The notes beneath the pieces are model-generated. The model was not told the origin of the DNA and searched no databases. It saw only the letters and a list, made by a program, of their open reading frames with translations. This document shows, one piece after another, positions 7,602 through 61,166 of a DNA stretch of 64,000 nt. The stretch lies in NCBI RefSeq assembly GCF_053078305.1, contig NZ_CP166879.1. The stretch is one strand, 5' to 3'. A program made the translations under genes and the position numbers. The first letter of the stretch is position 1. Each line of letters opens with the position of its first letter.

Positions 7602-8507
7602 ATGAAAAATATAGAGACAAAATGGTTATATGATTTTCTGGCGCTGGAAGCCTGTCGCAGTTTTTGTCAGGCAGCAAAAGAACGTAACCTTTCACAACCA
7701 GCATTCAGCAGAAGAATAAAGGCGTTAGAGTCAGCGATTGGTGTTGTTTTGTTCGATCGTACAACCTCACCTGTACAATTAACTGAAGAGGGTAGGCTTT
7801 TTCACTCCCAGACACGCAGTTTAGTGCAGCAGCTTGAATGCAATCTGAATGAATTAGGGGGGCTAAATTCATTCAATTTGCCCAATATTAAGATTGCAGC
7901 TGCTCACTCATTATCCCTCAGCATATTACCTAAACTGGTGTACTCACTCACTACCTTTGGCGGAGATTTTATCTATCATGTTGAGGCTATTGATGTTGTC
8001 CAAGCCGTAAATACATTACGAGAAGGGAAGAGTGACTTTGTTATTTCATTTCGAGATGAGGAGTTTATGCAATCGCCATTTTGCTACCTGAAACTGTTTG
8101 AGTCTGAGCTATATCCGGTATGTGCTGCTGATCAGCGGGGAAAACCAATTTTTGATATTACCCATTCACAGACCCCTTTGCTCAACTATACTCCAACTTC
8201 TTATATGGGCAGACTGGTTAATCATCATTTAGCAGAGTTAGGAGGGATATCCGGACACACAATTTTTGTATCTTCAATGAGTGAACTACTAAAAAATATG
8301 GCGCTCAATGGACTTGGTATTGCCTGGCTTCCACTCTGGTCAATTGCTGATGAGCTGAAGACCAAACGTCTTGTATGCCCGGGTTCAACTAAATGGACCG
8401 TGCCTATTCAGGCTTATATTTATCGTATGGATACTCGGCTGAATAAAACAGCTGAACACTTTTGGACGATTTTACGAAATAACATTGAAAAACTCAATGG
8501 TGAATAA
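7602..8507 (+). CDS. LysR-family transcriptional regulator
   Basis: 301 aa; N-terminal HTH (FCQAAKERNLSQPAFSRRIKALE); divergent from the racemase operon. Confidence 0.8.
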   Translation: MKNIETKWLYDFLALEACRSFCQAAKERNLSQPAFSRRIKALESAIGVVLFDRTTSPVQLTEEGRLFHSQTRSLVQQLECNLNELGGLNSFNLPNIKIAAAHSLSLSILPKLVYSLTTFGGDFIYHVEAIDVVQAVNTLREGKSDFVISFRDEEFMQSPFCYLKLFESELYPVCAADQRGKPIFDITHSQTPLLNYTPTSYMGRLVNHHLAELGGISGHTIFVSSMSELLKNMALNGLGIAWLPLWSIADELKTKRLVCPGSTKWTVPIQAYIYRMDTRLNKTAEHFWTILRNNIEKLNGE

Positions 8508-8574
8508 CTAGAAACATCGGGGACAGTTTTCTTCAGGAAGGAGAATCTCAAGAAAGCTTGATATCAGTGATATA

Positions 8575-8790
8575 TTACGTTAACGGAGCGCCGTATTGAC
8601 GCTTATTTATTGGTGAGAACTACGTTCCATAGCAGGAGTTCATCAACACGGTTGAAAGGCCATTCCTGCAGTACGCTCAGGATATGGCGCAGATCCGCCT
8701 CCGGATTGCTGATCAGCCCGTACAGTAGCGCACCACGCTCTCCACCGTGATCGTTGTCGAAGAACATGTAGATGATATGACCTTTATATA
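8575..8790 (-). mobile_element. IS66-family remnant (3' end of transposase gene plus right end)
   Basis: About 200 bp nearly identical to 52240-52440, the 3' end of the intact IS66-family element in this window. Confidence 0.6.
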
Positions 8791-8830
8791 CTCACTATAG
8801 CATTGGTGGGATATTCCAGAGGAGGTCATC

Positions 8831-9607
8831 ATGCATTCGGAAAATATTGCGGCTTACGTCGGGCTGGATGTGCATAAAGAAACGTTGGAGGTTGCTATTG
8901 CTGCACCTGAACGGCTTGGCGAAGTTCATTATTATGGTACGATTAACAACGAAGCCCAGGCTGTACGTCGATTATTTCAGAAATTGCAGGGACTTTACGG
9001 AAACATTCTTTCCTGCTATGAGGCTGGCCCCTGTGGTTTTGGGCTGTATCATCAACTCACAGCGATGAATATAAAATGCCAGGTTATTGCCCCTTCCCGG
9101 ATACCAAAATCACCGACAGACAGAATCAAAAATGATCATCGGGACGCAATTTCTCTCGCCAGGTTACTGCGGGCTGGAGAACTTACCCCTGCCTGGATCC
9201 CTGACCTGACTCATGAAGCTATGCGGGATCTAATCAGAGCCCGTGCAGCAGCTAAACGAGACAGCAGAGTTGCCCGACAGCGAATTCTGAGCATGCTATT
9301 GCGAACAGACAAACATTATGCAGGAAAGCACTGGACAGGAAAACACCGAACCTGGTTAGCTAATCAATCATTTAGTCAGCCATCTCAACAGATTGCTTTT
9401 CAGCACTATTGTCAGAGTCTGGAGCAGATTGAAGATCGCATACAGAAAATTAATGGTCATACGGCTGTTATCACATTTGATCCCGATATTGAGATGTTTC
9501 GCAGTGAGTTTACAGGCCTGAATGGCGGAGCTGATTTTTACGCGCACAGCGTAGAGGAGTTTAAGCGCAAAGGGATTAAGTCACTTGAAATTGAACCGGC
9601 CCCTTGA
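8831..9607 (+). pseudogene. IS110-family transposase, C-terminally truncated
   Basis: 258 aa N-terminal part of an IS110/IS1111-type transposase (YVGLDVHKETLEV...); the ORF ends exactly where the IS2-like element begins; strong RBS gaggagg. Confidence 0.7.
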
Positions 9608-9685
9608 AACGCCAGACAGTGGATGTATCTTAAAATAAGAGATAGGCTTGGATATATGTCTAACACTAGTGCTAATTTTGAGATG

Positions 9686-9960
9686 ACTGGAATTTTGCTG
9701 GGGCAGGAGCTTCGTAAACGTAAAACTCCTCAGGAAAAAATCGCCATTATTCAGCAGACAATGGAACCCGGTATGACGGTGTCCCATGTGGCGCGTTTGC
9801 ATGGTATTCAGCCCAGCCTGTTGTTTAAGTGGAAAAAACAATATCTGGAAGGAAGTCTCACTGCTGTTGCTGCCGGAGAGGATGTCGTTCCTGCCTCAGA
9901 ACTGGCTGCCGCTATAAAACAAATAAAAGAGTTACAGCGCTTGCTGGGTAAGAAATCTAT
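9686..9960 (+). pseudogene. IS2-like OrfA (InsC-like), N-terminal portion disrupted by insertion
   Basis: Matches IS2 InsC as recalled (QEKIAIIQQ...PGMTVS...[13 protein letters not shown]), diverges after LLGKK; the C-terminal remainder [25 protein letters not shown] resumes at 11308. Confidence 0.7.
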
Positions 9961-11307
9961 GGTCCCCACCATTTTTGCAACACTGATTTTGATTGATGTT
10001 GGCTTGCCTAAATCTATCCGGCGTCATTATGGGCATGGATGCCCGCGCCTCGATGAGTTCCGCACCTGATGAGCCCAAAAAACCATCCGGCTTCAGTGAG
10101 CCATTTTCTTGCTGAGGCTTTTCATCAGGCCGATATGCCGTTCATGTCATCAATAATCAGTCTTCGCAAAACCAGATTGGGAACTACTTTAATTCATGAT
10201 TAACCTGCCAGCCAGACTGGCGCCATCGTTACCTTTCGAACACAGTCTGCTGTGTTGTGATTGCCCACGCTATCCGGGCTAATTTGTTGGCCAGTGCGCA
10301 ACATACTACGCTGGAGTGTTTTCTTGCCAACAACGCCCTGACCCAATCCGCCAACCTTCCTGACTGATTCTCGATTCTCTGAATAAAGGATCTTGCGCAC
10401 TGAACGAGTAACCGTCGCAGATTTTTATCTCCACGTTTACTTATCCCTAAAAGTGTATTTTTACCACCTGTGCTGTACTGCCGGGGTACCAGACCGGTTG
10501 AAGCAGCAAAGTCCCGACTGCAGCTATATTGTTTACCGTCTCCCAGCTGCGATGACAGTACGCTGGCGGTTATCGGACCAATACCGGGTATTGTCTGAAG
10601 ACGTTGTCCTACCTCATCACGACTCAGTTCCTGCTCCAGTGCGATTTCAAGCTCGGTGATCTGTCCGACAAGATAAATATAATGGGCATGTAAGCGCATC
10701 AGTAACTGCGCCAGATAGGGAGGAAGTTCGTTCTCTGCAAGTACTGTTGAAAGTCGTTTTACCACTGCGACTCCTGTCGGCATACTGATGCCAAATTCCA
10801 GCAAAAAAGCATGCATCTGATTGGTCGTTTTGACTTTATCACTGACCAATGATTCCCTGGCCCGGTGAAGCGCCCGCATGGCCTGCTGAGCTTCTGTTCG
10901 TGGTTGCACAAATCGCATGGAGGGACGAGATGCCGCTTCGCATATGGCTTCTGCATCGACAAAATCGTTCTTGTTGCTCTTAACAAAAGGGCGAACGAAC
11001 TGCGGAGAAATCAATTTTGCTTCATGACCTAAATCAGCAATCCGGCGAGCCATAAAATGAGCTCCGGCGCAGGCTTCCATCACAACGGTAGACGAGGCAC
11101 AGCCTGCCAGAAACTCAATAAGTTTGGTACGGGTAAACTTTTTACGCAGCAATACCTTGCCTGACTTATCTTGGCAGTGAATGTGAAAGGAATGCTTGCC
11201 AAGATCTATACCAATAAGCGTAATGTTTTGCATGATGGTCTTCTCCATGAAAGAAAAACACTCTACTAGGGTACAGCTCACAGGGTGGTGGGGACCATCT
11301 CATTAAC
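9961..11307 (-). mobile_element. intact IS110-family element nested in IS2-like orfA
   Basis: About 1.35 kb insert; ggtccccacc at the left end (9961-9970) and its reverse complement ggtggggacc near the right end (11286-11295); contains a 350 aa transposase. Confidence 0.75.
10229..11281 (-). CDS. IS110-family transposase
   Basis: 350 aa; N-terminal DEDD-type domain ([13 protein letters not shown]) and C-terminal transposase_20-like region ([12 protein letters not shown]...NKLARIAW). Confidence 0.85.
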
Positions 11308-11358
11308 CATGGAAGTTGAGATCCTCAAAGAAGCGGTGGAGTATGGTCAGTCGCGAAA

Positions 11359-48456: not shown

Positions 48457-48576
48457 AACTTTTCATCCGTCGTTGACAGGATGCGTTAGCAGCACACATC
48501 CGGCTCTGCGCGGGGAATAGCCGGAAACGGCTATCCCTACCACAATAGCTAACTTTGCAATAATCCCCTTTTGAGC

Positions 48577-49608
48577 TCATGTACTCTGACGTAATTCTAT
48601 CTGGTAGTTGAATTGCACGATACGCGACTCTTCTGATTCATCATGATTATTATTCAATAGTCCAATCAGCAGCTTACCCGTCTCTGTCCCCATTTTTTTG
48701 TAGTCAATACGGATGGATGTCAAGGTTGGGTGTGTTTGATCGCAACTGTCTGAACCGTCAAGACAAGCTACAGCGATATTTCCAGGGATTTTTAACAAAC
48801 GCCGCTGGCACTCAAACATGATACCCAGCGCAATCTCTTCGTGGCTGCAAATCACAGCATCCAGCTCTGGTTGTCGCAGTAATATCTCGTTTAATGCGTA
48901 ACGCCCCAATTGCAAACTTGCGGCACCCGGCATGGTGATAACAAGATCAGAGTTCTGGTAATAGCTCAGCATTGCTTTATGCCAGCCGTTCAGTTGCTGA
49001 CGTTGCAGGCGGTTGTCCATATGCGCACCGATAAATCCGATATTCTTATAACCCTGTTCCAGCATATGTTCGGTCAGTTTATGTGATGCTTCAAAAAATG
49101 CTGTTTCGATGGTAATTTGAGCCGGACTGAAAGGGGAACCGACAACGTTAATGGTAGGTATATTTGTTTTCTCGAGTATCTGGTGAGTTTTATCAGCCAA
49201 CTGAGAACCAAAAATAACTAACGCCGCCGGGTTACCTTGAAGAAGCGTCATCAGGATTTCAGCTTCTTTGAGCTGATTATACTCATGACACCCAAGCAGT
49301 AGCTGGAATTCATTTTTATTAAGCACCTGCTGCAACGACTGCATAAAGCGGGAGCTGGTTTTATCTGTCAGGGAAGGAACCAGTACGGCGACTGTATGAC
49401 TGTGACCAGATGCAAGGGCGCCAGCAGTTCTGTTGGGAATATAACCCAACTCTTCTACGGCCTGTTCTATCTTTTCCCTCAGCTTGTCAGAAACCTGTTC
49501 CGGTGTTCTCAGCGCGCGGGAAACGGTCATGGTTCCGACACCTGCAAAGTTAGCGACCTCCTGCAGCGTCACCCGTCCGGTACCACGGCGCTTACGTGTT
49601 TTTCCCAT
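48577..49608 (-). CDS. LacI-family transcriptional regulator
   Basis: 343 aa; N-terminal HTH VTLQEVANFAGVGTMTVSRAL; periplasmic-binding-like effector domain. Confidence 0.85.
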   Translation of the reverse strand: MGKTRKRRGTGRVTLQEVANFAGVGTMTVSRALRTPEQVSDKLREKIEQAVEELGYIPNRTAGALASGHSHTVAVLVPSLTDKTSSRFMQSLQQVLNKNEFQLLLGCHEYNQLKEAEILMTLLQGNPAALVIFGSQLADKTHQILEKTNIPTINVVGSPFSPAQITIETAFFEASHKLTEHMLEQGYKNIGFIGAHMDNRLQRQQLNGWHKAMLSYYQNSDLVITMPGAASLQLGRYALNEILLRQPELDAVICSHEEIALGIMFECQRRLLKIPGNIAVACLDGSDSCDQTHPTLTSIRIDYKKMGTETGKLLIGLLNNNHDESEESRIVQFNYQIELRQST

Positions 49609-49878
49609 TTCGACTCCATGGATAATTACAACCAGCTGTTTTCATTACTTTTATTTTACCATTACTCTTTCCAGTTTTTGCCCACGGTAGCAAATATCCT
49701 GTTGCATTGTATATGCAGGAACCGAATATAGCCAAAGCATGGCGGCAGAGAAATGATAGCGCTATCACAAAGATCGGTAGCGTTATCAGATAGCGCTATC
49801 AAATGCGACAATCATCACATTAATTAATGCGTAAAATATCTACTCTCCTGTTAATTATCATCGGGAGTTATCAGTCGC

Positions 49879-50322
49879 ATGTTAAAAAATCTATTAAATA
49901 CAAAGGTCGTTCAGGTCGTGGAACAGGTCAAAGACTGGCGGGAAGCCGTGGCGATTTCATGCCGACCGTTGATTGAAAACGGTTCTATCGAACCACGTTA
50001 TGTTGATGCGATCTATCACTCTCACGACACTATCGGTCCGTACTATGTGGTTGGCCCTGGTATTGCGATGCCTCATGCGCGCCCGGAAGAGGGGGCTAAC
50101 AAGCTGTCATTAGCACTGACCCTGATCCCTTCAGGTGTGAATTTTGATGCCGATGAAAACGATCCAGTGAAATTACTGATTGTGCTGGCTGCAACCGACA
50201 GTACCAGCCACATTGAAGCGATTTCTCAACTCGCCAAGTTATTCGATAACGAAAAAGACATACAGGCTATTTTGACGGCCAAAACGACGCAGGACATTTT
50301 GTCTGTTATTGCGCGCTATTAA
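49879..50322 (+). CDS. PTS EIIA component (ascorbate/UlaC-like family)
   Basis: 147 aa; resembles UlaC/SgaA-type IIA with the conserved phosphorylatable His region (GIAMPHAR). Confidence 0.8.
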   Translation: MLKNLLNTKVVQVVEQVKDWREAVAISCRPLIENGSIEPRYVDAIYHSHDTIGPYYVVGPGIAMPHARPEEGANKLSLALTLIPSGVNFDADENDPVKLLIVLAATDSTSHIEAISQLAKLFDNEKDIQAILTAKTTQDILSVIARY

Positions 50323-50337
50323 TCCTGAGGAACATTT

Positions 50338-50625
50338 ATGAAAATTACAGTGGTTTGCGGTAACGGCTTAGGCACCAGCCTGATGATGGAAATGAGCATT
50401 AAAAGCATTTTGAAGGATTTGTCCGTCAGCGCTGATGTTGATCATGTCGACCTGGGCTCCGCGAAAGGGACGCCGAGTGATATCTATGTCGGCACCAAAG
50501 ACATTGCCGAGCAGTTAGTCGCGCAGTCTGTCGCAGGCAAAATCGTCGCACTGGAAAATATGATTGATAAGAAAGCCATGAGAGAACGTTTATCCGTGGC
50601 ATTAACCGAATTAGGCGCACTGTAA
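50338..50625 (+). CDS. PTS EIIB component (UlaB-like)
   Basis: 95 aa; N-terminal Cys motif KITVVCGNGLGTS. Confidence 0.8.
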   Translation: MKITVVCGNGLGTSLMMEMSIKSILKDLSVSADVDHVDLGSAKGTPSDIYVGTKDIAEQLVAQSVAGKIVALENMIDKKAMRERLSVALTELGAL

Positions 50626-50637
50626 GCTGGGGGCGAT

Positions 50638-51894
50638 ATGGATTTCTTTCGTTTTTTGATGAGCGATGTACTTTCCGAACCCGCAGTGCTGGTCGGTTTA
50701 ATCGCCCTGATTGGCCTGATTGCACAGAAAAAACCGGTAACCGAATGCATTAAAGGTACCGTCAAGACCATTATGGGGTTTGTGATTTTAGGCGCAGGGG
50801 CGGGTTTAGTTGTGTCGTCACTGAGTGACTTCGCAAACATTTTCCAGTATGCCTTTGGTATTCAGGGTGTAGTGCCGAACAATGAAGCCATTGTTTCCGT
50901 AGCGCAGAAAAGCTTCGGGAAAGAAATGGCGATGATTATGTTCTTTGCGATGGTTATCAACATTATGATTGCCCGTTTCACACCGTGGAAATTTATCTTC
51001 CTGACCGGTCATCACACGTTGTTTATGTCGATGATGGTAGCGGTAATTCTGGCAACAGCAGGCATGACCGGCATTACGCTTATAGCCGTTGGCTCTTTGG
51101 TTGTTGGCGTGGCAATGGTCTTTTTCCCGGCTATTGCGCATCCGTACATGAAGAAAGTGACCGGTTCTGATGACGTTGCCATCGGCCACTTCTCAACATT
51201 ATCTTATGTATTGGCCGGTTTCATCGGCAGCAAGTTTGGTAATAAAGAGCACTCGACTGAAGACATGAATGTGCCGAAAAGTCTGCTGTTCTTGCGCGAC
51301 ACGCCGGTTGCTATCTCTTTTACCATGAGCATAATTTTCCTGGTGACGTGCCTGTTTGCGGGTGCAGATGCGGTGAAAGAGCTTAGCGGTGGTAAAAACT
51401 GGTTCATGTTCTCTATCATGCAATCCATTACCTTCGCAGCTGGCGTGTACATCATTCTGCAGGGTGTGCGCATGGTGATTGCGGAGATTGTCCCGGCATT
51501 CAAAGGTATTTCAGACAAGCTGGTTCCGAATGCCAGACCTGCTCTCGATTGCCCGGTCGTCTTCCCTTACGCACCTAACGCTGTACTGGTTGGTTTCCTG
51601 AGTAGCTTTGCTGCAGGTTTAATCGGTATGTTCACGTTGTATTTGCTGAACATGATCGTGATTATTCCTGGTGTGGTGCCGCACTTCTTCGTAGGTGCAG
51701 CTGCAGGGGTATTCGGTAATGCAACGGGTGGACGTCGTGGTGCGATTTTGGGTGCCTTCGCTCAGGGCTTGCTTATTACCTTCCTGCCAGTATTCTTATT
51801 GCCTGTGCTGGGTAACATTGGTTTTGCTAACACCACCTTCAGTGATGCTGACTTTGGCGCACTGGGTATTTTGTTAGGGATTATCGTTCGCTAA
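50638..51894 (+). CDS. PTS EIIC permease (UlaA/SgaT-like)
   Basis: 418 aa polytopic membrane protein, colinear with UlaA as recalled; somewhat shorter than UlaA (about 465 aa). Confidence 0.8.
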   Translation: MDFFRFLMSDVLSEPAVLVGLIALIGLIAQKKPVTECIKGTVKTIMGFVILGAGAGLVVSSLSDFANIFQYAFGIQGVVPNNEAIVSVAQKSFGKEMAMIMFFAMVINIMIARFTPWKFIFLTGHHTLFMSMMVAVILATAGMTGITLIAVGSLVVGVAMVFFPAIAHPYMKKVTGSDDVAIGHFSTLSYVLAGFIGSKFGNKEHSTEDMNVPKSLLFLRDTPVAISFTMSIIFLVTCLFAGADAVKELSGGKNWFMFSIMQSITFAAGVYIILQGVRMVIAEIVPAFKGISDKLVPNARPALDCPVVFPYAPNAVLVGFLSSFAAGLIGMFTLYLLNMIVIIPGVVPHFFVGAAAGVFGNATGGRRGAILGAFAQGLLITFLPVFLLPVLGNIGFANTTFSDADFGALGILLGIIVR

Positions 51895-51907
51895 TATTTT
51901 GATGACA

Positions 51908-51960
51908 TTAATATCCTCCAGGATTTCAGGAACGTGGAGGATATTAATTCCTCTTATTTT
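51908..51960 (+). terminator. putative intrinsic terminator after the PTS IIC gene
   Basis: Perfect 13 bp inverted repeat TTAATATCCTCCA / TGGAGGATATTAA around a 14 nt loop, followed by a T-rich tract. Confidence 0.45.
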
Positions 51961-52260
51961 CTCCATTTTTCTTTCTTCCAGTCAGGACTGCATCTGATTA
52001 ATCGTAAGCGCTCCGGGAAGTACGTCGCGTAAGGATTATTTTACAGCTGAGAAGTTTCAGTGCAGCAGTTCATGCACACGGTTCGACGGCTAGTCATTGA
52101 TCTTCATAATTACCTCGCGTAAAAAACGGGGTAAGGCCGCTCATCCAGCGTCATCTCCACAGGTAATAATTCAACGCCAATGCCAGAAGAGTTCCTTACC
52201 GGAAGACGCCGTGATATACGCCCTTTGATCGTAAGCGTCAACGGAGCACCGTATTGACGC

Positions 52261-53853
52261 TTATTTATTGGTGAGTACTACGTTCCATGGCAAGAGTTCA
52301 TCAACTCGGTTGGAAGGCCATTCCGGCAGTACGCTCAGGATATGGCGCAGATACGCTTCCGGATCGATACCGTTCAGACGGCAGGTGCCGATCAGCCCGT
52401 ACAACAGTGCTCCACGCTCGCCGCCGTGATCGCTGCCAAAGAACATAAAGTTTTTCTTTCCGAGACAGACTGCACGAAGCGCTCTTTCCGCAGCATTATT
52501 ATCCGCCTCCGCCAGACCGTCATCACTGTAATAACAGAGGGCATCCCACTGATTCAGTACATAGCTGAACGCTTCGCCCAGTCTGGATTTTTTCGACAGC
52601 GTACCATTCTTCTCCACCATCCATTCATGCAGCGACGTCAGTAACACTTTGCTTCGCTGCTGCCTGACGGAAAGACGCTCTGACTCCGGTAATCCCCGTA
52701 TTTCATCCTCGATGGCGTACAGTTCACTGATTCGCTTCAGGGCTTCTTCTGCCTTCGCACTTTTGCTGCTGATGTATACATCGTGGATTTTTCGCCGGGC
52801 ATGGGCCCAGCACGCAACTTCTGTCAGTGCACCACCTTCACGTTCTGCACTGAACAACCTGTCGTAACCTGTGAACGCATCCGCCTGCAGGATACCCCGG
52901 AAGGGGCGGAGGTGTTGCTCCGGGTGTTTCCCCTGCCGGTTCGGCGAGTACGCGAACCAGACCGCTGGAGGAGATGACGAACCCACATTGCGATCATCCC
53001 GGACATACGTCCAGATACGCCCTGTTTTCGCCTTTTTCTGACCCGGTGCCAGTACCTTTACCGGTGTGTCATCAGTGTGAACCTTGCGGGTGTTCATTAC
53101 ATAACGGTACAGGGCATCATTCACCGGTGTCATTAACTGGCAGCACGCGTCAACCCAGTTGGAGAGTAAGGCCCGGCTCAGTTCGACACCCTTGCGGGCA
53201 AAGATTTCACTCTGACGATACAGTGGCAGATGTTCGCAGTATTTTCCCGTTAACACGCGGGCAAGTAATCCGGGGCCCGCGATACCACGCTCTATCGGGC
53301 GGGACGGCGCCGGTGCTTCAACGATGCAGTCACATTTTGTACAGGCTTTTTTTACCCGTTCTGTGCGGATCACTTTCAGGGCGCTGCTCACCAGTTCCAG
53401 TTGTTCTGCACTGACTTCCCCCAGATAATCCAGCTCACCGCCACACTCCGGGCAACAGCTTTCTTCAGACTCCAGACGGTGTATTTCACGGGGAAGGTGT
53501 GCCGGTAACGGACGACGATGGCGCGACTGTCGCAACTGGCGGGGAACCTGTGGATCGTCTTCCCGCCCACTGTAACGATCGCTGTCCTGTTCGCGTTGTT
53601 TCAGCAGGGCCTCAGCCTGTTCAACTTCACGACGCAGTTTTTCAGAACGGGTACCGAACAGCATCCGGCGCAGTTTTTCTATCTGAGCCCGCAGATGTTC
53701 TATTTCCCGTTCATCTTCTTCGATCTTTTCTTCGGCACGTGCCAGTGCAGAGCGCAGGAAGGCCTCCGTCTCTTCAACCAGACTCAGTTGCTGGTCTTTC
53801 TGACGGAGCTGGCTTTCCAGTTCTGCAATGCGAATGAGGTATTTCTGACTCAT
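52261..53853 (-). CDS. IS66-family transposase (TnpC / Orf3)
   Basis: 530 aa; N-terminal coiled-coil/leucine zipper, zinc-finger-like CxxC pairs, DDE core. Confidence 0.9.
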   Translation of the reverse strand: MSQKYLIRIAELESQLRQKDQQLSLVEETEAFLRSALARAEEKIEEDEREIEHLRAQIEKLRRMLFGTRSEKLRREVEQAEALLKQREQDSDRYSGREDDPQVPRQLRQSRHRRPLPAHLPREIHRLESEESCCPECGGELDYLGEVSAEQLELVSSALKVIRTERVKKACTKCDCIVEAPAPSRPIERGIAGPGLLARVLTGKYCEHLPLYRQSEIFARKGVELSRALLSNWVDACCQLMTPVNDALYRYVMNTRKVHTDDTPVKVLAPGQKKAKTGRIWTYVRDDRNVGSSSPPAVWFAYSPNRQGKHPEQHLRPFRGILQADAFTGYDRLFSAEREGGALTEVACWAHARRKIHDVYISSKSAKAEEALKRISELYAIEDEIRGLPESERLSVRQQRSKVLLTSLHEWMVEKNGTLSKKSRLGEAFSYVLNQWDALCYYSDDGLAEADNNAAERALRAVCLGKKNFMFFGSDHGGERGALLYGLIGTCRLNGIDPEAYLRHILSVLPEWPSNRVDELLPWNVVLTNK

Positions 53854-53883
53854 GACCGTTTTTATAATGCGGTCAGGATTTTT

Positions 53884-54234
53884 TTACAACATTGTCAGTG
53901 AGTTACGGCGGGATGTTTTTGGCTGACGCCAGTCCAGCTTATCGAGGAGCATTGCCAGTTGCGAGCGGGTAATGGATACCTTGCCGTCACGTACCGCAGG
54001 CCAGATAAACTGGCCTTCCTCCAGGCGTTTAGTGAACAGGCACAGACCATCAGCATCAGCCCAAAGAATTTTAACGGTGTCACCCCGTCGGCCACGGAAG
54101 ATAAACAGGTGACCGGAGAAGGGATTATCATTCAGCACATGTTGTACCTGTTCTCCCAGTCCGTTGAAGGATTTACGCATATCGGTAACGCCGGCAACGA
54201 GCCAGATACGGGTACCTGATGGGAGTGAGATCAT
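53884..54234 (-). CDS. IS66 Orf2 (TnpB) accessory protein
   Basis: 116 aa; characteristic position and size; overlaps Orf1 by 4 bp. Confidence 0.85.
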   Translation of the reverse strand: MISLPSGTRIWLVAGVTDMRKSFNGLGEQVQHVLNDNPFSGHLFIFRGRRGDTVKILWADADGLCLFTKRLEEGQFIWPAVRDGKVSITRSQLAMLLDKLDWRQPKTSRRNSLTML

Positions 54235-54656
54235 CTTCCCCTCCCGGTCAGTTCACGGATCAACACCGTGAGCAGCTCTGGCGATGGATTTTCCAGCGTC
54301 ATGTTACCGTGACGGAATTCCACCTTGCAGGAGCTGGCACTGACTCTGGTCTGAGAGGTAGTGGATAAAGATGGCGCAATGGCCACCACAGGTTCTTTCT
54401 GCTCATCCGGCGTTATTTCTACAGGTAATAATTCAACGCCAGTGTCAGAAGAGGTCGTTACCGGAAGACGCCGCGAAACACGCCCTTCGTTCTGCCAGAG
54501 CCTGAGCCATTTGAACAGGAGGTTATCATTGATATCGTGTTCCCGGGCGATACGGGCAACAGAGGCTCCTGGTTGCAAAGCCAGTTTAACCATTTGAAGT
54601 TTAAAATTATTTGAAAATGATCTGCGGGGTTCTGCGGATAATGTTTTTTGCTCCAT
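54231..54656 (-). CDS. IS66 Orf1 (TnpA) accessory protein
   Basis: 141 aa; N-terminal HTH-like region (FKLQMVKLALQPGASVARIAREHDINDNLLFKW). Confidence 0.8.
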   Translation of the reverse strand: MEQKTLSAEPRRSFSNNFKLQMVKLALQPGASVARIAREHDINDNLLFKWLRLWQNEGRVSRRLPVTTSSDTGVELLPVEITPDEQKEPVVAIAPSLSTTSQTRVSASSCKVEFRHGNMTLENPSPELLTVLIRELTGRGR

Positions 54657-54748
54657 AACAGGCGTCCACTAGTTTGAAAAGGTGGGCACCTACGTTACCA
54701 ATACTGGCTTAATGGCTACATACGGCAGTCGGTTTACGCTTACCTTTG

Positions 54749-54993
54749 ATCAGCCAGAGCCTGAGCCATTTGAACAGAAGATTATCATTGATATCATGCT
54801 CCCGGGCAATACGGGCAACAAAAACCCTTGGTTGTAAAGCCAGTTTAACCATTTGAAGTTTAAACTCATTTGAAAATGACCTGCGGGGTTCTGCGGATAA
54901 TGTTTTTTGTTCCATAACAGGCATCCACTAGTTTGAAAAGGTGGGCACCTACGTTACCAATACTGGCTTAATGGCTACATACGACGGTCGGTT
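54749..54993 (-). mobile_element. partial tandem duplicate of the IS66 left end (with truncated orf1 copy at 54709-54924)
   Basis: About 245 bp roughly 95% identical to 54493-54748, including a second GTAAGCG-type terminal repeat at 54993. Confidence 0.7.
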
Positions 54994-55045
54994 TACGCTT
55001 ACCAGAAAACTAATAGTGCTATATGCAATTTTTAATATTCAGACT

Positions 55046-57727
55046 TTAGCCTGACAGGCCTGACAAAAACGCGCCCAACTTCCCTTCTATATCACTGTCT
55101 ATAGTACGTAATCTTAGCAATGGCAGACCACATTTCTTCAGTATACTGTTTTTAAGTTCATCACGTTCAGCCTGGACACTGGTCAGATGATAGCCTCCAT
55201 CCACTTCAATAACCCCTAATGGAGTCTTCCCGACCTTATAGTAAACAACAAAGTCACAACTGGCCCGATTACGCATGAATAACAGTTCACGGTGAGTAAA
55301 ATCTCCCCGCTCCAGCAACACCAACTGATTCAGCGCTATTTGTGAATGAAACATCATGCTCCGATAACTATCCTGCGACAGGATATCCCGCAACAGGCAG
55401 GCCACAATCTGTTCTGACTTAAAGCGTGAATCATCTGAATTCAATCTACTATTCAGTCGTTCCAGTGATTTGTCATACTCACTGTACAGCAAATCAAATG
55501 CTGATATCACCGGGCTCTCGAAAATCTCTCCGTCATCAGCGTAGTATCTGATGTAACGAATCAGTGCCGCAATATGTCCAGCGTGGCGTTCAAATACATC
55601 ATTACCAGTCACCAACGTAAATTTGTTTCGGGCCCTTGAAACAGCGACATTCACCAGTTCAGGATTATCAACAAACGCGATATTCCGACTTTGCTGGCTG
55701 CTGCGTTTCTTATCCAGCACAGTGGAAAACACAATTTCATCGCACTCCCGTCCCTGAAATTTATGCACCGTCGATTTCACAAAATCAGCGGGCAGCACTG
55801 TTTCAGCCAGATTAACCTGTGCATTATATGGGGCGATATATCCCCTGCTACTTTCCTCATCCCAGTAATGTCCTTCCAGAGATTCAAGCTCCCTGAGATT
55901 TGAAAAATTACGGGTATGGTTTCCTTTTGCCGTGATGATCAGAGATAATGAGGCTTCACCTGAATCAAGCGTTAGCGGTATCAGAGCATTATCATAAAAC
56001 TGCTTATTACAAAATTGAATGATTTTAGGATGACAGCGATAATGCTCTTTAAGAAGAGTTACTGGCACCATATTCCTGAACGACATACAAACCGAATCAA
56101 GTAGACTATATTTCTCACAATTATAGTATTCTGCCGGTGGAGATGGGCTGTTCGGGAGTAATACAGGAACATGTGGAAGTTGCTTTCGATCCCCTACAAC
56201 GATTACATTACGGGCACATCCTAGTCCCAGAATGCCCGGAACAATATCCTGCTGTGAGGCTTCATCAATAATCACATAATCAAGAAGAGCCCCCTTACCG
56301 ATAGAGTTAATAATAGAATGCGTGCTGCTACCAATAACCGGAAAACGCTTTATAAAACGGTTAAATTCATCCCTGTATGTCTCTGCCGAGAATGAATTTC
56401 TTGTTGAAATATTTCTTCGCAGATGTTGTTTTAAATAAAGCACAGACCATGATGTCAGGCGCTCCAGTAAAATTTTAAAATCAGATTCCTTTAATACTTT
56501 CTCATATTCATTCAAAGAAATTTGTTTTTCCCGGATGGATTTTTCATAATAAGAAAGCTGAAGAGAAGTAAATAGTGCCAGCCTTCTCTCCGGAATCACC
56601 AATGGTTTGACTTTCAGTATCCTGAAGTTTAACAACAAATCAATTCTGTTTCTGAATCCAATCCGCCTGTCAGAAAGGTAATGAATATAAGCCATCAGGT
56701 CAGTTGTTTTTCGTGAGGAAAGTCGGTATTTGTGAGAAAAAAGCTCCTCCGGTCGAAGATTCTGACTCTGCCATTGCTGCAGGTATTTATACTCAACACT
56801 CAGTTCATTAATTTCTGCTTTTAACGAAGCAACCTGGTTGATAGCATTCAGGTGTTTTTTCACTTGTTGAAGTACATCATCAATCATATTTGCAGACGGT
56901 GAGTCAGGTAAGACTTCCTCAGAACGCGAAATCGACGTTGAAAAAAACTGTTGTCTGTTCTCCGTACTTCCCAGTCGTGCCACCACATATCCCAGTCGTT
57001 GTTTGTCCATTTTTTCATAAACATTACTGACAGCTGAGTTATTATTGGACAAAATTGCCACTGTTTTATTCTGAATTAATATATTGGCAACAATATTGAG
57101 AATAGTCTGTGTTTTACCTGTCCCAGGTGGTCCTTCAATAACTGAAATCTGTGAGGAAAATGCCCGTTCAACCGCCATTAACTGACTCTCATTCAGGCCA
57201 AACGGAAAAATCAACCCCCATGGCGAATCACGTTTTTTACTCTGTCCTGAACAGTATGCATGCAAGGCGGTATCCGGATGAGGAACTATTTTCTTTATCT
57301 GTCTGAGGATATTCTCATCGATATTTTTATTATTACCTCGAGCATAAAAAACACGTTCGTCAGCCACCCTGCACAAGTAATTAAACACGGCATGCTCTGT
57401 AAATGCTGAACACTGTTGAAAGTCAAGTCCGGTCGTTTTCATGATGTAGGGTCGTTCGCTCTCACGGTAATAAACAGCAGCATATTTATCACCATAGATA
57501 ATAACCCGTTCAGCCCGGGATGTTACAGCGTTCCCTTTCCTTTCGAGGAAAACATTTCGCAAAATTACAGTTGGCGTTATCTGACATACAGAAAGCGGAC
57601 GAGTATATTTTTTCCCGCTGCGAAAATGACAGGTCAGCATAACCTCTCCGTCATCATTTCCAGCCCACAGAGTCCAGTCGGTAATTTTATGAGTCTTATT
57701 TTCACCGTCAACACAAATCGTGACCAT
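55046..57727 (-). CDS. SF1 (Upf1/DNA2-like) helicase with C-terminal DUF559/Vsr-like nuclease-fold domain; candidate single-gene defence protein
   Basis: 893 aa; Walker A GPPGTGKT; motif II VIIDEASQ; C-terminal DFVVYYK...GVIEVDGGYH...LPLLRLR resembles the DUF559/Vsr-like PD-(D/E)xK fold; about 190 aa N-terminal domain of unknown function. Confidence 0.7.
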   Translation of the reverse strand: MVTICVDGENKTHKITDWTLWAGNDDGEVMLTCHFRSGKKYTRPLSVCQITPTVILRNVFLERKGNAVTSRAERVIIYGDKYAAVYYRESERPYIMKTTGLDFQQCSAFTEHAVFNYLCRVADERVFYARGNNKNIDENILRQIKKIVPHPDTALHAYCSGQSKKRDSPWGLIFPFGLNESQLMAVERAFSSQISVIEGPPGTGKTQTILNIVANILIQNKTVAILSNNNSAVSNVYEKMDKQRLGYVVARLGSTENRQQFFSTSISRSEEVLPDSPSANMIDDVLQQVKKHLNAINQVASLKAEINELSVEYKYLQQWQSQNLRPEELFSHKYRLSSRKTTDLMAYIHYLSDRRIGFRNRIDLLLNFRILKVKPLVIPERRLALFTSLQLSYYEKSIREKQISLNEYEKVLKESDFKILLERLTSWSVLYLKQHLRRNISTRNSFSAETYRDEFNRFIKRFPVIGSSTHSIINSIGKGALLDYVIIDEASQQDIVPGILGLGCARNVIVVGDRKQLPHVPVLLPNSPSPPAEYYNCEKYSLLDSVCMSFRNMVPVTLLKEHYRCHPKIIQFCNKQFYDNALIPLTLDSGEASLSLIITAKGNHTRNFSNLRELESLEGHYWDEESSRGYIAPYNAQVNLAETVLPADFVKSTVHKFQGRECDEIVFSTVLDKKRSSQQSRNIAFVDNPELVNVAVSRARNKFTLVTGNDVFERHAGHIAALIRYIRYYADDGEIFESPVISAFDLLYSEYDKSLERLNSRLNSDDSRFKSEQIVACLLRDILSQDSYRSMMFHSQIALNQLVLLERGDFTHRELLFMRNRASCDFVVYYKVGKTPLGVIEVDGGYHLTSVQAERDELKNSILKKCGLPLLRLRTIDSDIEGKLGAFLSGLSG

Positions 57728-58235
57728 ATTCTCACTCAGTAATTATCATTTAACTTACGGAAAATTGTTATGAAACTCCCGATATTTACCCGGTAAAATA
57801 CTTGTCATTGTTTGAAGCCCTCCCTAAAAAATGACCAGGCATTTGATAACCCGGTGTATTTCTCCCGATATGAGCTCCGGAGGATTTTCCACAACTCCGG
57901 GTGTGTTAACATATTCCCGCCGGCCATATATACATTGAGTTCAGTCATAACAGTCAATACCAGGATTACAGGAACGCGATGCTGATACGCTGGTTATTGA
58001 ATACTGGTAGCCCCTAACTACTAATTCATCACGATACTCTGTACTTACTGTTTTTTACAACCATTCCCCCAGGTAAAAGAGTCCATTTATCATGCCCCTC
58101 TTTAACGCCTGCCAGCATAATTTAAGAATGGATACCGTGGGTGGAATTAACAATACCTGCTCAGGCCAATGCCATGTAACCGCCTCACTGAAAAAGCCAG
58201 ATCATCTAACCAGGTACAGACCAACATCGCAAAAA

Positions 58236-58385
58236 TTACCATGTAGCACGAACTGCTGTCATATTTCTGTTCAGGTATGCCGCTATTTCGCGGGTTTTCT
58301 TCACGCCATAATGCGTTTCAAGGTAGCGAACATCTTCGATTGTCCATGGTGTGCGCGCTCTTCCGGGGGTATTTTCCATTTCCAT
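58236..58385 (-). CDS. small ORF (49 aa) with Myb/SANT-like pattern; putative DNA-binding protein
   Basis: Not in the supplied ORF track (below 60 aa); starts 16 bp downstream of the ImpA-N gene stop; W-x(2)-E-D-x(2)-L-x(3)-YG...IAxxL.R...R..W spacing. Confidence 0.35.
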   Translation of the reverse strand: MEMENTPGRARTPWTIEDVRYLETHYGVKKTREIAAYLNRNMTAVRATW

Positions 58386-58400
58386 GTTTTATCTCAGCCA

Positions 58401-59765
58401 TTATGGCTGCCTCTCCTGATTGCCTGTGTGTTCCATCTGATAACGATTAATCAGCTGATTCAGTGCCATTTCAGCCTGTTTTTGCTGCTGTTCACTGCCA
58501 TTCTGATTACGGGCTTCATCATAGCGACGTAACTGCTCTTCTGCCGGGATATGCCGGTTAAAAGCCTGCATGATGCCAAACACCTCCGTTTTCAGTTCAC
58601 TGACCGTCATGTATTTTCCCCGCTGTTCATCCAGACGGTTCAGGCGCTCAGCCAGCTGCTGTAAGCGGGTCATGCCTTCGTTCCAGCCCGTCATCGCCTC
58701 TTCCGGAAGCGCTCGGCTCCTTACGCTCTTCTGCCAGTTATCCACCATTTCCTGAACACGGGGATTGTCGGGGAAAAGTCCCCTCAGTTGCTGCAGCAGC
58801 TGCGCACTGCGTTGCAGGTTGTATGCCGGCGGTAGTTCTGTCAGTCGCGTTATCTGCTGACCGGAAAGGGTTATCCACTCTGACGCATGATTTAACAGTG
58901 AGGGTGTTCTGCTGAGTTGCGCCATCTGGTCTGCTGAAAGCACATCCGGTAGTGGTGCCAGCAGCGCCCTGAGTTGCTGCTCCGCCGATGATGGCTGTGT
59001 CAGAAACTGCCATCCCGGAATGACCACGCTGACAGTCAGCAATGCCGCACAGACACCAGCCACAAACGGTTTCAGAAACGTGGGCGGGGATTTCTGAAGG
59101 GAGGGTGTGGGTTCTGCTTTTGTTTCAGAAACAACATACACCAGACGGGAGTACGGCAGGGGCTGATGTTCCTGTACATCCGGAGCATCAGACCGGAGTG
59201 CCTGAGCCGGAAGGGTTACCGGCGACGATACTTCACCCTGCACAGGCTGATTCTCCAGACGGGTGATATATCCCTTCACCATGGCTTCCGGTAAAGCCAC
59301 TTTACTGCTCTGTTTAAGTTCATGCCGGGCCAGTATGTCACTCAGCGTTTTCAGGCATGTTTCTGTCTGATACAGCAGGGGCAGATTGTCACGCTCATCC
59401 GGTGGCATGGCCCGGAGCGTTTTTTGCAGACGACTGAACAGACCGGTAATAATTTCCAGCCGGGCGTGGGTATTCAGCGGCCACATCACTGACCAGTGAT
59501 GCCGGGTCAGCGCCACAATCAGAGCCAGCCCTTCATTCAGACCACTTAACCCTGCTGTATGCATCCGGGCGATGGTGTACCAGGATACCGTCTGTAATTC
59601 CACGCCATTGTGTTCATACAGACGCAGGCAGAGCGTCTCCACATAACGCCAGTCCACATCCGGACGTGCCGGGTGAGTCAGCTTGCTGATTTCATCGCGC
59701 AGGGCAGCATAATCCGGTAATGACCGGGGGTCATTACCTGTTTTCAGTTTTACTTCAGAAGTCAT
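58401..59765 (-). CDS. T6SS-associated ImpA-N domain protein (VasL/TagA-like)
   Basis: 454 aa; N-terminal ImpA_N-like region (GNDPRSLPDYAALRDEISKL), central TM segment; adjacent to T6SS core genes. Confidence 0.7.
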   Translation of the reverse strand: MTSEVKLKTGNDPRSLPDYAALRDEISKLTHPARPDVDWRYVETLCLRLYEHNGVELQTVSWYTIARMHTAGLSGLNEGLALIVALTRHHWSVMWPLNTHARLEIITGLFSRLQKTLRAMPPDERDNLPLLYQTETCLKTLSDILARHELKQSSKVALPEAMVKGYITRLENQPVQGEVSSPVTLPAQALRSDAPDVQEHQPLPYSRLVYVVSETKAEPTPSLQKSPPTFLKPFVAGVCAALLTVSVVIPGWQFLTQPSSAEQQLRALLAPLPDVLSADQMAQLSRTPSLLNHASEWITLSGQQITRLTELPPAYNLQRSAQLLQQLRGLFPDNPRVQEMVDNWQKSVRSRALPEEAMTGWNEGMTRLQQLAERLNRLDEQRGKYMTVSELKTEVFGIMQAFNRHIPAEEQLRRYDEARNQNGSEQQQKQAEMALNQLINRYQMEHTGNQERQP

Positions 59766-59819
59766 CGGCAGATTCAGTGTTGCTGTATCAAATCATAATT
59801 AATATTCCCGGAAAGAGCG

Positions 59820-60128
59820 TCAGTGTAATACCGGTACCCGGGAAAGGTATTCCACCGCACGGATGATTGCCGGTGTCACATCCCACCGCCGCTTCAGAAC
59901 CGCCAATAACTCACTGAGTGTTCTGATATAACGTTCAGTGAACAGTCGCTGCCCGTCCCTGGTTAAATGAAAACCGGACTGATTACAGGTAATGGTAATA
60001 TGGCAGGCATCATTACCAATATATACGGCTTCCTGTGGCCTGAATCTGACATTCCAGTGCCAGGAATACGGAGCATGATTCAGATAAAAAAGGCGCATCT
60101 GGATGTCATTAAATAACGGGTTCATCAT
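59820..60128 (-). CDS. hypothetical T6SS-cluster protein (102 aa)
   Basis: ORF between the ImpA-N gene and tssE; no motif. Confidence 0.45.
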   Translation of the reverse strand: MMNPLFNDIQMRLFYLNHAPYSWHWNVRFRPQEAVYIGNDACHITITCNQSGFHLTRDGQRLFTERYIRTLSELLAVLKRRWDVTPAIIRAVEYLSRVPVLH

Positions 60129-60177
60129 TCAGCCCTCGTTTATGTCTGTTAAGCACACGGATAAGGGGAACCATAAA

Positions 60178-60630
60178 TCACCCCCTGAAAGTCATCACAT
60201 TATCCACAAACTGCTGTTGCTTCAGATATCGCAGTAACACCCTGCCCTCCGGCATAAAAGTTGTTCCGTAACGAACCAGTCCTGCATCTTTAAGTTCTGC
60301 ATCAATGACATAATGCAACTCACCAGGCTGAGTCTGTTCCTGCATCGTCACCCCGACACGCTTAATACGTGGCTCATACTTCAGCAGAACATCTGAAAGC
60401 ACACACATCAGTTGATGCGCCGTTCCCGGCATTCCCTGCAGAATGCTTGTCATATCCGGCAGACCATAATCCGGAAGATGTTTAAGGCTTCCGGCCCGGG
60501 TATTCAGAATACGCTGCATGTTATCGAGCACCGAAAGAATAACCTGCTCTTCCTCACTGACCTGGTTTAACTCCAGCCCGCCAGCGAAATTGCCATAGAG
60601 AATTTCATAAAGGGAAGGACGCGGCATCAC
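60178..60630 (-). CDS. tssE: type VI secretion baseplate protein TssE (gp25-like)
   Basis: 150 aa; gp25-like pattern (SLYEIL...LPDYGLPD...); adjacent to tssJ/G/F. Confidence 0.8.
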   Translation of the reverse strand: MMPRPSLYEILYGNFAGGLELNQVSEEEQVILSVLDNMQRILNTRAGSLKHLPDYGLPDMTSILQGMPGTAHQLMCVLSDVLLKYEPRIKRVGVTMQEQTQPGELHYVIDAELKDAGLVRYGTTFMPEGRVLLRYLKQQQFVDNVMTFRG

Positions 60631-61166
60631 TATTTATCCTTCACCGGTAACAGCGTCAGGGTGTTACCGGATACTTCAATAAGACGGGGCGTGTCCGGCT
60701 CAAGCTCATCCCGGCTCAGCACCACCCGCCAGGTATTTTTCTTCCGGTCAGGCTCCAGAAACATTGCTGCCACACCGGTAAATTTCGCCGCATCATCCAG
60801 AGGCATATCCACGGCCACTGAACCACCTGGCTGCAGCCATACATCTTTCTGTGCAATGATATCGCCTGCCAGAATTTCACTGTCCCCCGTAAAAAGCGCC
60901 TGATAATCCGCGCTGTCAAAATTCCGGTTGTCTTTAAGCTGATAAATCCGCACCACAACCGACAGGGGAATACCGGCAGCACTGGTGTTAATGGCCTCCC
61001 TGGCACGAATATCAAGGTGAAGTGTTTTTATCTGTCGGTAAAACAGGGATTTCGTGGCAGATACCGTACCGTCTGCCACTCTTTGCGTCAGGCCACACCC
61101 TGATAACGACAGGGAAAACAACGCAATAATCAGACCGTAACCAGTCTTACCAGCGATAATCGCCAT
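60630..61166 (-). CDS. tssJ: type VI secretion lipoprotein TssJ (SciN-like)
   Basis: 178 aa; lipobox LSGC; position between tssG and tssE. Confidence 0.8.
   Translation of the reverse strand: MAIIAGKTGYGLIIALFSLSLSGCGLTQRVADGTVSATKSLFYRQIKTLHLDIRAREAINTSAAGIPLSVVVRIYQLKDNRNFDSADYQALFTGDSEILAGDIIAQKDVWLQPGGSVAVDMPLDDAAKFTGVAAMFLEPDRKKNTWRVVLSRDELEPDTPRLIEVSGNTLTLLPVKDK

Follow-up and report, generated by a model that had tools for sequence, protein, structure and literature searches.

Organization of the IS66-family locus

The DNA analyzed here (the window) is a 64,000-nucleotide (nt) stretch of an Escherichia coli pathogenicity-island mosaic, taken from NCBI RefSeq assembly GCF_053078305.1, contig NZ_CP166879.1; coordinates are window positions unless a contig is named. 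The locus under study, at 52004-55002, contains a complete IS66-family insertion sequence (IS) of the ISEc23 type at 52231-54743, with remnants of an older IS66-family sequence (the relic) on either side. In a preliminary description of this DNA, the complete element, a second copy of its left end at 54749-54993, a short orf1-like piece at about 52150-52230 and a separate IS66 3' fragment at 8575-8790 had been reported, and the second left end had been interpreted as a partial tandem duplication. Self-comparison of the window confirmed every repeat listed there, with small corrections to the coordinates (54743-55002, 52139-52225 and 8578-8767, respectively). Three features had been missed: the 8-bp repeat CTTTGATC, the right end of the relic at 52004-52138, and an inverted left-tip fragment at 14400-14467.

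The complete element lies on the minus strand, is 2513 bp long and has three intact genes. The first, tnpA (54231-54656, minus strand), encodes a 141-aa helix-turn-helix accessory protein (Pfam HTH_Tnp_1, E=7.7e-15) of the same length as annotated ISEc23 TnpA. It overlaps by 4 bp (54231-54234) with tnpB (53884-54234, minus strand), which encodes a 116-aa IS66 Orf2-like accessory protein (TnpB_IS66, E=1.1e-36). The third gene, tnpC (52261-53853, minus strand), encodes a 530-aa DDE transposase with the domains LZ_Tnp_IS66, zf-IS66, DDE_Tnp_IS66 and DDE_Tnp_IS66_C, all four above the gathering cut-offs; the DDE_Tnp_IS66 match (E=3e-97) covers positions 1-283 of the 284 in the profile. By analogy with the IS66 family, TnpC would be the DDE catalyst, with TnpA and TnpB as required accessory proteins.

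The tips of the element, read from the sequence, are GTAAGCGT... and ...ACGCTTAC. Terminal inverted repeats of the IS66 family begin with the consensus GTAAGCG. The inverted repeats of the window element are imperfect: by a count made by eye, the left tip (GTAAGCGTCAACGGAGCACCGTAT) and the reverse complement of the right tip (GTAAGCGTAAACCGACTGCCGTAT) agree at 18 of the first 24 positions. The type of DDE transposase, the two upstream accessory open reading frames (ORFs) with their overlap, the inverted repeats and an 8-bp target duplication (described below) were all found, and the IS66-family identity given in the preliminary description is correct. The prototypes IS66 and IS679 likewise have three ORFs, a tnpA/tnpB overlap at ATGA, a DDE transposase in the third ORF and imperfect GTAAGCG repeats; they are other members of the family than the window element.

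Over its full length, the element was 98.0-98.3% identical at the nucleotide level to elements whose transposase carries the RefSeq name "IS66-like element ISEc23 family transposase". Under the ISfinder naming convention, a name applies at nucleotide identities of at least 95% to the named element. Measured against the RefSeq-annotated copies, the window element lies above this value and is classed, by nucleotide identity, as an isoform of ISEc23. The ISEc23 copies annotated by the Prokaryotic Genome Annotation Pipeline (PGAP) on E. coli chromosomes and plasmids have the same gene layout (tnpA of 141 aa, tnpB of 116 aa, and tnpC) and an 8-bp duplication, and the tips of the reference copies L004 and L005 are those of the window element; the annotated copies are 2533-2534 bp long, in contrast to the 2513 bp found here. 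In an alignment with one annotated copy, 25 mismatches and a 21-bp in-frame deletion were counted. The deletion shortens TnpC from 537 to 530 aa, with the loss of seven residues from the N-terminal coiled coil (an ERLLSEQ-type segment).

Target-site duplication and nesting

The sequence CTTTGATC is present at 52223-52230 and again at 54744-54751, as a perfect 8-bp direct repeat that abuts both tips of the element (GTAAGCG... and ...CGCTTAC); at fixed positions, such a match would arise by chance with a probability of 4^-8, or about 1.5e-5. An 8-bp target duplication is named as a hallmark of IS66 in PMC6778807, with reference to Machida 1984. The reference ISEc23 copy L004 is also flanked by an 8-bp duplication (GAAGTTGC).

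With 52231-54751 removed, 52139-52230 joins 54752-55002, and the rejoined sequence aligned across the joint, with no gap there, to the left-terminal 343 bp of the element itself. What had been described as a "second left end" and an "orf1-like piece" thus represents the two halves of one older IS66-family sequence. The first of them, 54743-55002, is 91.9% identical to the last 260 nt of the element (E=3e-105; 21 of 260 positions differ) and holds a truncated tnpA start (HTH_Tnp_1, E=3.5e-13) and a second terminal repeat (...CGCTTAC) that ends at 55002. The second, 52139-52225, matched the stretch just inside the left end of the element at 87.4% identity (E=6e-25).

Uninterrupted forms of the relic, each with a single CTTTGATC, were found in related E. 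coli genomes (L001, L002, L003 and L006), and the rejoined window sequence is colinear with the locus in all four. The genome of strain 04-00955 (L003) is 98.9% identical to the window on the left of the insertion (48479-52230) and 99.3% identical on the right (54743-64000), with an overlap of just 9 bp between the two matches at the insertion site. We therefore read the structure as a nested insertion, in which a young ISEc23 isoform sits inside an older IS66-family relic, and assign this reading a probability of roughly 95%. The resemblance to a tandem copy of the left end of the element arises from the target, a co-oriented relative with 92% identity.

A true partial tandem duplication, in which the left ~259 bp was copied in place by slippage or unequal crossing-over and later diverged, would agree with the output of a repeat search, in which two 259-nt copies lay side by side, their starts 259 nt apart. 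Against it, the copies are 8% apart, yet the element is young, with 100% identical copies at other loci; the outer copy continues in register beyond the element, at 52139-52230; and the 8-bp target duplication brackets the element. The relic is also held alone, without the element, by 1338 genomes, and these empty sites already refute a duplication in place. Secondary precise excision from a duplicated form would not leave a relic that is 92% identical and internally deleted. On these grounds the tandem duplication proposed in the preliminary description was abandoned, and we give it next to no weight.

Among 5426 complete E. coli genomes, no contiguous high-identity match to the relic/ISEc23 junction was found; three records covered at least 80% of the junction query, two of them by a two-piece match over ~400 bp at 91.5% and one by an 82% match. 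Exact-match scans of the genome_contigs and metagenome_contigs collections for the left relic/element junction returned none. A public draft contig (L012) was 100% identical to the window over 9593 bp, including the entire nested structure, with 12 further similar places beyond those listed.

These results bear on the possibility that the extra IS end is spurious, produced when the assembly was wrongly joined at a repeat. Mis-assembly at IS elements is a classic problem, and two draft contigs described below (L014 and L018) change partner exactly at the tips of the element, so some assemblies of the lineage may be chimeric. The two left-end copies in the window are nevertheless distinguishable by 21 differences in 260 nt, and the expected 8-bp duplication is seen at both junctions. 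The relic on its own is known from 1338 genomes and the element from many loci, so that each component is independently validated. The complete agreement of the independent contig L012, by repeating the nested structure in an assembly other than the window, argues against an artefact. A mis-assembly is accordingly regarded as extremely improbable.

Recent mobility of the isoform

An exact-protein look-up placed the 530-aa TnpC in 138 indexed blocks of a public assembly collection, and eight loci with the exact protein were retrieved (five other sites, L012, L014 and L018); the lineage of the window came to light by this route alone. At the five other sites, which are unrelated loci, the 2513-bp element was present at 100% or, with one mismatch, 99.96% identity, each time with its own perfect 8-bp duplication (GTATATAA, where an enoyl-reductase gene is split, TTTGTTTC, CAGTATCA, CAGCCAGT and TTCCGTAC). 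Since near-identical copies occupy five loci with distinct duplications, the isoform has been mobile very recently. Indirect but strong evidence of this kind suggests that the isoform, with a TnpC seven residues shorter, would be competent for transposition. The exact 2513-bp isoform was found in none of the complete RefSeq E. coli genomes of the collection and is common in draft assemblies.

The older relic

After rejoining, the relic is 478 bp long, internally deleted, and retains both tips. Its right-hand half (52004-52230, minus strand), identified from translation, a weak Pfam match and DNA matches, has the right inverted-repeat (IRR) tip, GTAAGCG, at 52004; it also carries a degenerate C-terminus of tnpC and, at 52139-52230, the middle part of tnpA. 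The left-hand half (54752-55002, minus strand) consists of the 5' part of tnpA and the left inverted repeat (IRL), with its tip at 55002; it corresponds to the left end of the new element at 91.9% identity and is contiguous with 52230 in the empty-site genomes. Approximately the last 30 codons of tnpC (with stop codons) and the first ~95 codons of tnpA are preserved. The minus-strand translation upstream of the tnpA remnant reads ...PRFLREVIMKIND*PSNRVHELLH*NFSAVK* and aligns residue for residue with the TnpC C-terminus (...PEAYLRHILSVLPEWPSNRVDELLPWNVVLTNK*); both tryptophan codons are now stops.

The deletion junction of the relic was detected in 1338 of the 5426 complete E. coli genomes (about a quarter), with a median of one place and a maximum of three places per genome across the 1493 genomes with a match. 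In every copy for which the neighborhood was examined (L001, L002, L003, L006 and L010), the relic adjoins the same phosphotransferase system (PTS) IIABC operon. The relic is therefore old, immobile and, in these genomes, fixed at one locus. The possibility that the 478-bp sequence is a mobile IS66 derivative, resembling a miniature inverted-repeat transposable element (MITE), was considered and rejected, given the median of one place per genome, the constant PTS neighbor and the lack of a target duplication.

Three caveats attach to the nested-insertion reading. The name ISEc23 was taken from RefSeq annotation and not from the ISfinder reference entry. The relic right end at 52004-52138 is too diverged from the new element for significance by nucleotide alignment alone: 51990-52145 aligned to the right end of the new element with a score of 24, and the maximum among shuffled sequences was 27. 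The identity of this end was assigned instead from the GTAAGCG tip at 52004, the register of that tip (which matches that of the intact element), the translated PSNRV.ELL motif, the weak DDE_Tnp_IS66_C match (E=0.016) and an 88% DNA match to the 3' end of a pseudogene annotated as "IS66 family transposase" at another place. Finally, the 8-bp sequences next to the relic do not match each other (GATTAATC and CAGAAAAC), which implies that at least one rearrangement has affected it since. Nothing was found that contradicts the nested insertion.

The mismatched flanks of the relic bring in homologous recombination between two full-length IS66-family copies, by which the relic pieces would be recombination products of the intact element. 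The absence of a target duplication around the relic is in keeping with such an event. So is the presence of at least two haplotypes in the IRL-proximal ~100 bp of the relic (54752-55002 compared with L003:7853-8103 and L001:4533-4777), which correlate with the right-hand context; recombination has probably acted on the relic at some time. It would not, however, yield an exact 8-bp duplication around the intact element, and it would not account for an empty site at which the element and one copy of the repeat are the sole difference. Recombination thus applies to the earlier history of the relic rather than to the nested element, and as an explanation of the latter it is very unlikely.

The relic of the window and that of L003 differ at four positions, three of which carry the base of the adjacent intact ISEc23 in the window. 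These three would fit gene conversion; the sites are too few for this to be claimed.

Rearrangements at IS66-family ends

All compared strains agree up to the IRL tip of the relic (55002) and then diverge at once into three right-hand contexts. In the window and in L003, the tip is followed by an AAA helicase gene and then a type VI secretion system (T6SS) cluster. In L006, and also in L001 and L002 with extra IS elements, it is followed by genes for aldose epimerase, fucP and rbsK. In L010, it is followed by IS debris and then by DUF465 and dolP.

IS66-mediated deletions by homologous recombination have been described in Agrobacterium tumefaciens pAt15955 (PMC6778807). In that case, matched and mismatched 8-bp flanks separate simple insertion from recombination, and the same logic was used here: the flanks are mismatched on the relic and on the L014 and L018 copies, whereas those of the intact element in the window are matched. 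No rearrangement has therefore involved the intact element in the window. The earlier proposal that IS66 ends mark rearrangements is thus supported in part, chiefly by the IRL tip of the relic with its three contexts and also by the tips in L014 and L018; it does not extend to the intact element in the window.

In the draft contigs L014 and L018, identity with the window is 100% but confined to one side of the element, and E. coli plasmid DNA starts exactly at the element tip, in L014 at L014:3111 (leading to F-type traB/traK) and in L018 at L018:5623 (leading to IncI-type traJ). Their 8-bp flanks are GGATATTC/GATCAAAG and GATCAAAG/GATTGTCC, respectively. When PLSDB was searched for plasmids with the element at the plasmid-side sites of L014 or L018, no plasmid was found to hold those junctions; such a plasmid would have pointed to recombination with a copy already present on it. 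The two contigs could be real cointegrates or recombinants, formed by plasmid integration or by recombination at the element, or chimeric assemblies. The switch to plasmid tra DNA at the element tip in both hints that, in this E. coli lineage, the nested ISEc23 may serve as a portable site of homology or cointegration, through which F-type and IncI-type conjugative plasmids would integrate into the island or exchange DNA with it; we consider this unlikely, together with a weaker variant in which ISEc23 would prefer IS66-family tnpA targets.

Other IS66 fragments and the surrounding island

Two further IS66-family fragments lie in the left part of the window. The fragment at 8578-8767 (minus strand) is a right end with the last ~65 codons of tnpC and was detected by blastn (80.6% identity over 211 nt, E=7e-56) and by tblastn (TnpC residues 465-530 at 71%). 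Its terminal 5-6 bp are degenerate, an internal truncation lies at about 8767-8782, and it is located among IS110 and IS3 fragments. The fragment at 14400-14467 (plus strand) is a left (IRL) tip, inverted relative to the intact element (82% identity over 68 nt, E=1.5e-13), and abuts a truncated SPATE autotransporter gene.

The interval 8500-14500 is an IS graveyard, in which the IS66 right-end fragment is followed by a truncated IS110 transposase gene (8831-9607), an IS3-family element, SPATE fragments and the IS66 left tip. In the IS3-family element, orfA (9623-10069) and orfB (11359-12240) are separated by a second IS110 (10229-11281, minus strand). The SPATE autotransporter fragments, with Peptidase_S6 and ESPR domains, are at 12269-14276; in L009, a different IS66-family element truncates the same SPATE gene at window position ~14194. 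In the IS graveyards known from island module boundaries, fragments of IS110, IS3 and IS66 cluster as they do in the window.

At least 80% of the first 24 kb of the window was held by no complete E. coli genome. The segment 3527-12278 is only ~89% identical to complete E. coli genomes, in contrast to 97-99% for most of the window, and the genes annotated in the matching regions include aspartate ammonia-lyase, a C4-dicarboxylate transporter and type I restriction-modification; this segment may have been acquired horizontally or may represent a diverged paralogous module.

A giant repetitive adhesin gene and its type I secretion system occupy 23.8-35.9 kb. The adhesin ORF (23798-30871, minus strand; 2357 aa) contains 18 perfectly identical 300-bp tandem repeats and the start of a 19th, at 24851-30292. 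Its homologue in L006 is annotated as a "GA-like domain-containing protein" of more than 3300 aa and stands beside HlyD, an ABC transporter and a TolC-type type I secretion system. The 100% identity across 18 repeat units is remarkable and could reflect very recent expansion or homogenization, or effects of assembly collapse or consensus. The adhesin region is followed, in order, by a YadA-like adhesin gene, ireA, LacI with a PTS operon, the IS66 locus, the helicase gene and the T6SS cluster. A probable intrinsic terminator of the PTS operon lies at 51905-51950, directly behind the PTS IIC stop codon; it consists of a perfect 13-bp inverted repeat (TTAATATCCTCCA...TGGAGGATATTAA) with a T-rich run after it, and is conserved in L001, L002 and L003.

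On the right of the locus, 55046-57727 (minus strand) encodes an 893-aa protein with AAA_11 and AAA_12 superfamily-1 helicase domains and a C-terminal DUF2726. In PADLOC, the protein best matches the helicase regions of Mokosh MkoA (E=4e-43) and MkoC (E=2e-41). With the IS66 relic on one side and a degraded T6SS cluster on the other, the gene stands by itself and may be a stand-alone defense gene. Its left neighbor depends on the strain (IbrA/IbrB-like genes in L007, multiple ISEc23 copies in L008). The T6SS cluster (57.8-64 kb) appears degraded at the helicase end. In strain 04-00955, which is 99% identical, the genes for the VasL-domain and ImpA-family N-terminal proteins are partial pseudogenes (L003:11337-12865), and tssE, tssJ, tssG and tssF are intact.

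Proposed order of events and significance

In the order of events that best explains the locus, an old IS66-family element, situated between the 3' end of the PTS ascorbate-type IIC gene and the sequence on the right, decayed to the 478-bp relic with both tips. More recently, the 2513-bp ISEc23 isoform transposed into the tnpA remnant of the relic. By analogy with what is known of the IS66 family, TnpC with the accessory proteins TnpA and TnpB would have made a staggered 8-bp cut, repair of which would give the CTTTGATC duplication. The target lies inside dead DNA between convergent gene ends, the PTS IIC gene ending at 51894 (plus strand) and the helicase gene at 55046 (minus strand), and because of this position the insertion would be selectively neutral.

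In kind, the feature is already known, being ordinary mobile-element biology at an E. coli pathogenicity-island junction. In other nested IS-in-IS insertions and IS graveyards at such junctions, a young element is likewise found within a decayed relative; peculiar to the window is that host and guest are 92% identical and co-oriented, and nothing else is distinctive.

The importance of the finding beyond correct annotation is small. Annotation of the locus should show a single intact ISEc23-type element, flanked by its 8-bp duplication, in a split IS66-family relic, and not a duplicated end or three unrelated "transposase" fragments. The insertion is a clean marker of a sublineage, as it occurs in a group of draft assemblies and in none of the 5426 complete E. 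coli genomes, and the mobility of a 2513-bp isoform with a TnpC seven residues shorter is documented. The outer tip of the relic is a boundary between island modules, with the PTS and adhesin module to its left and, to its right, the module of helicase and T6SS in some strains and that of fucose and ribose in others, and this boundary is useful for reconstructing how the island was assembled.

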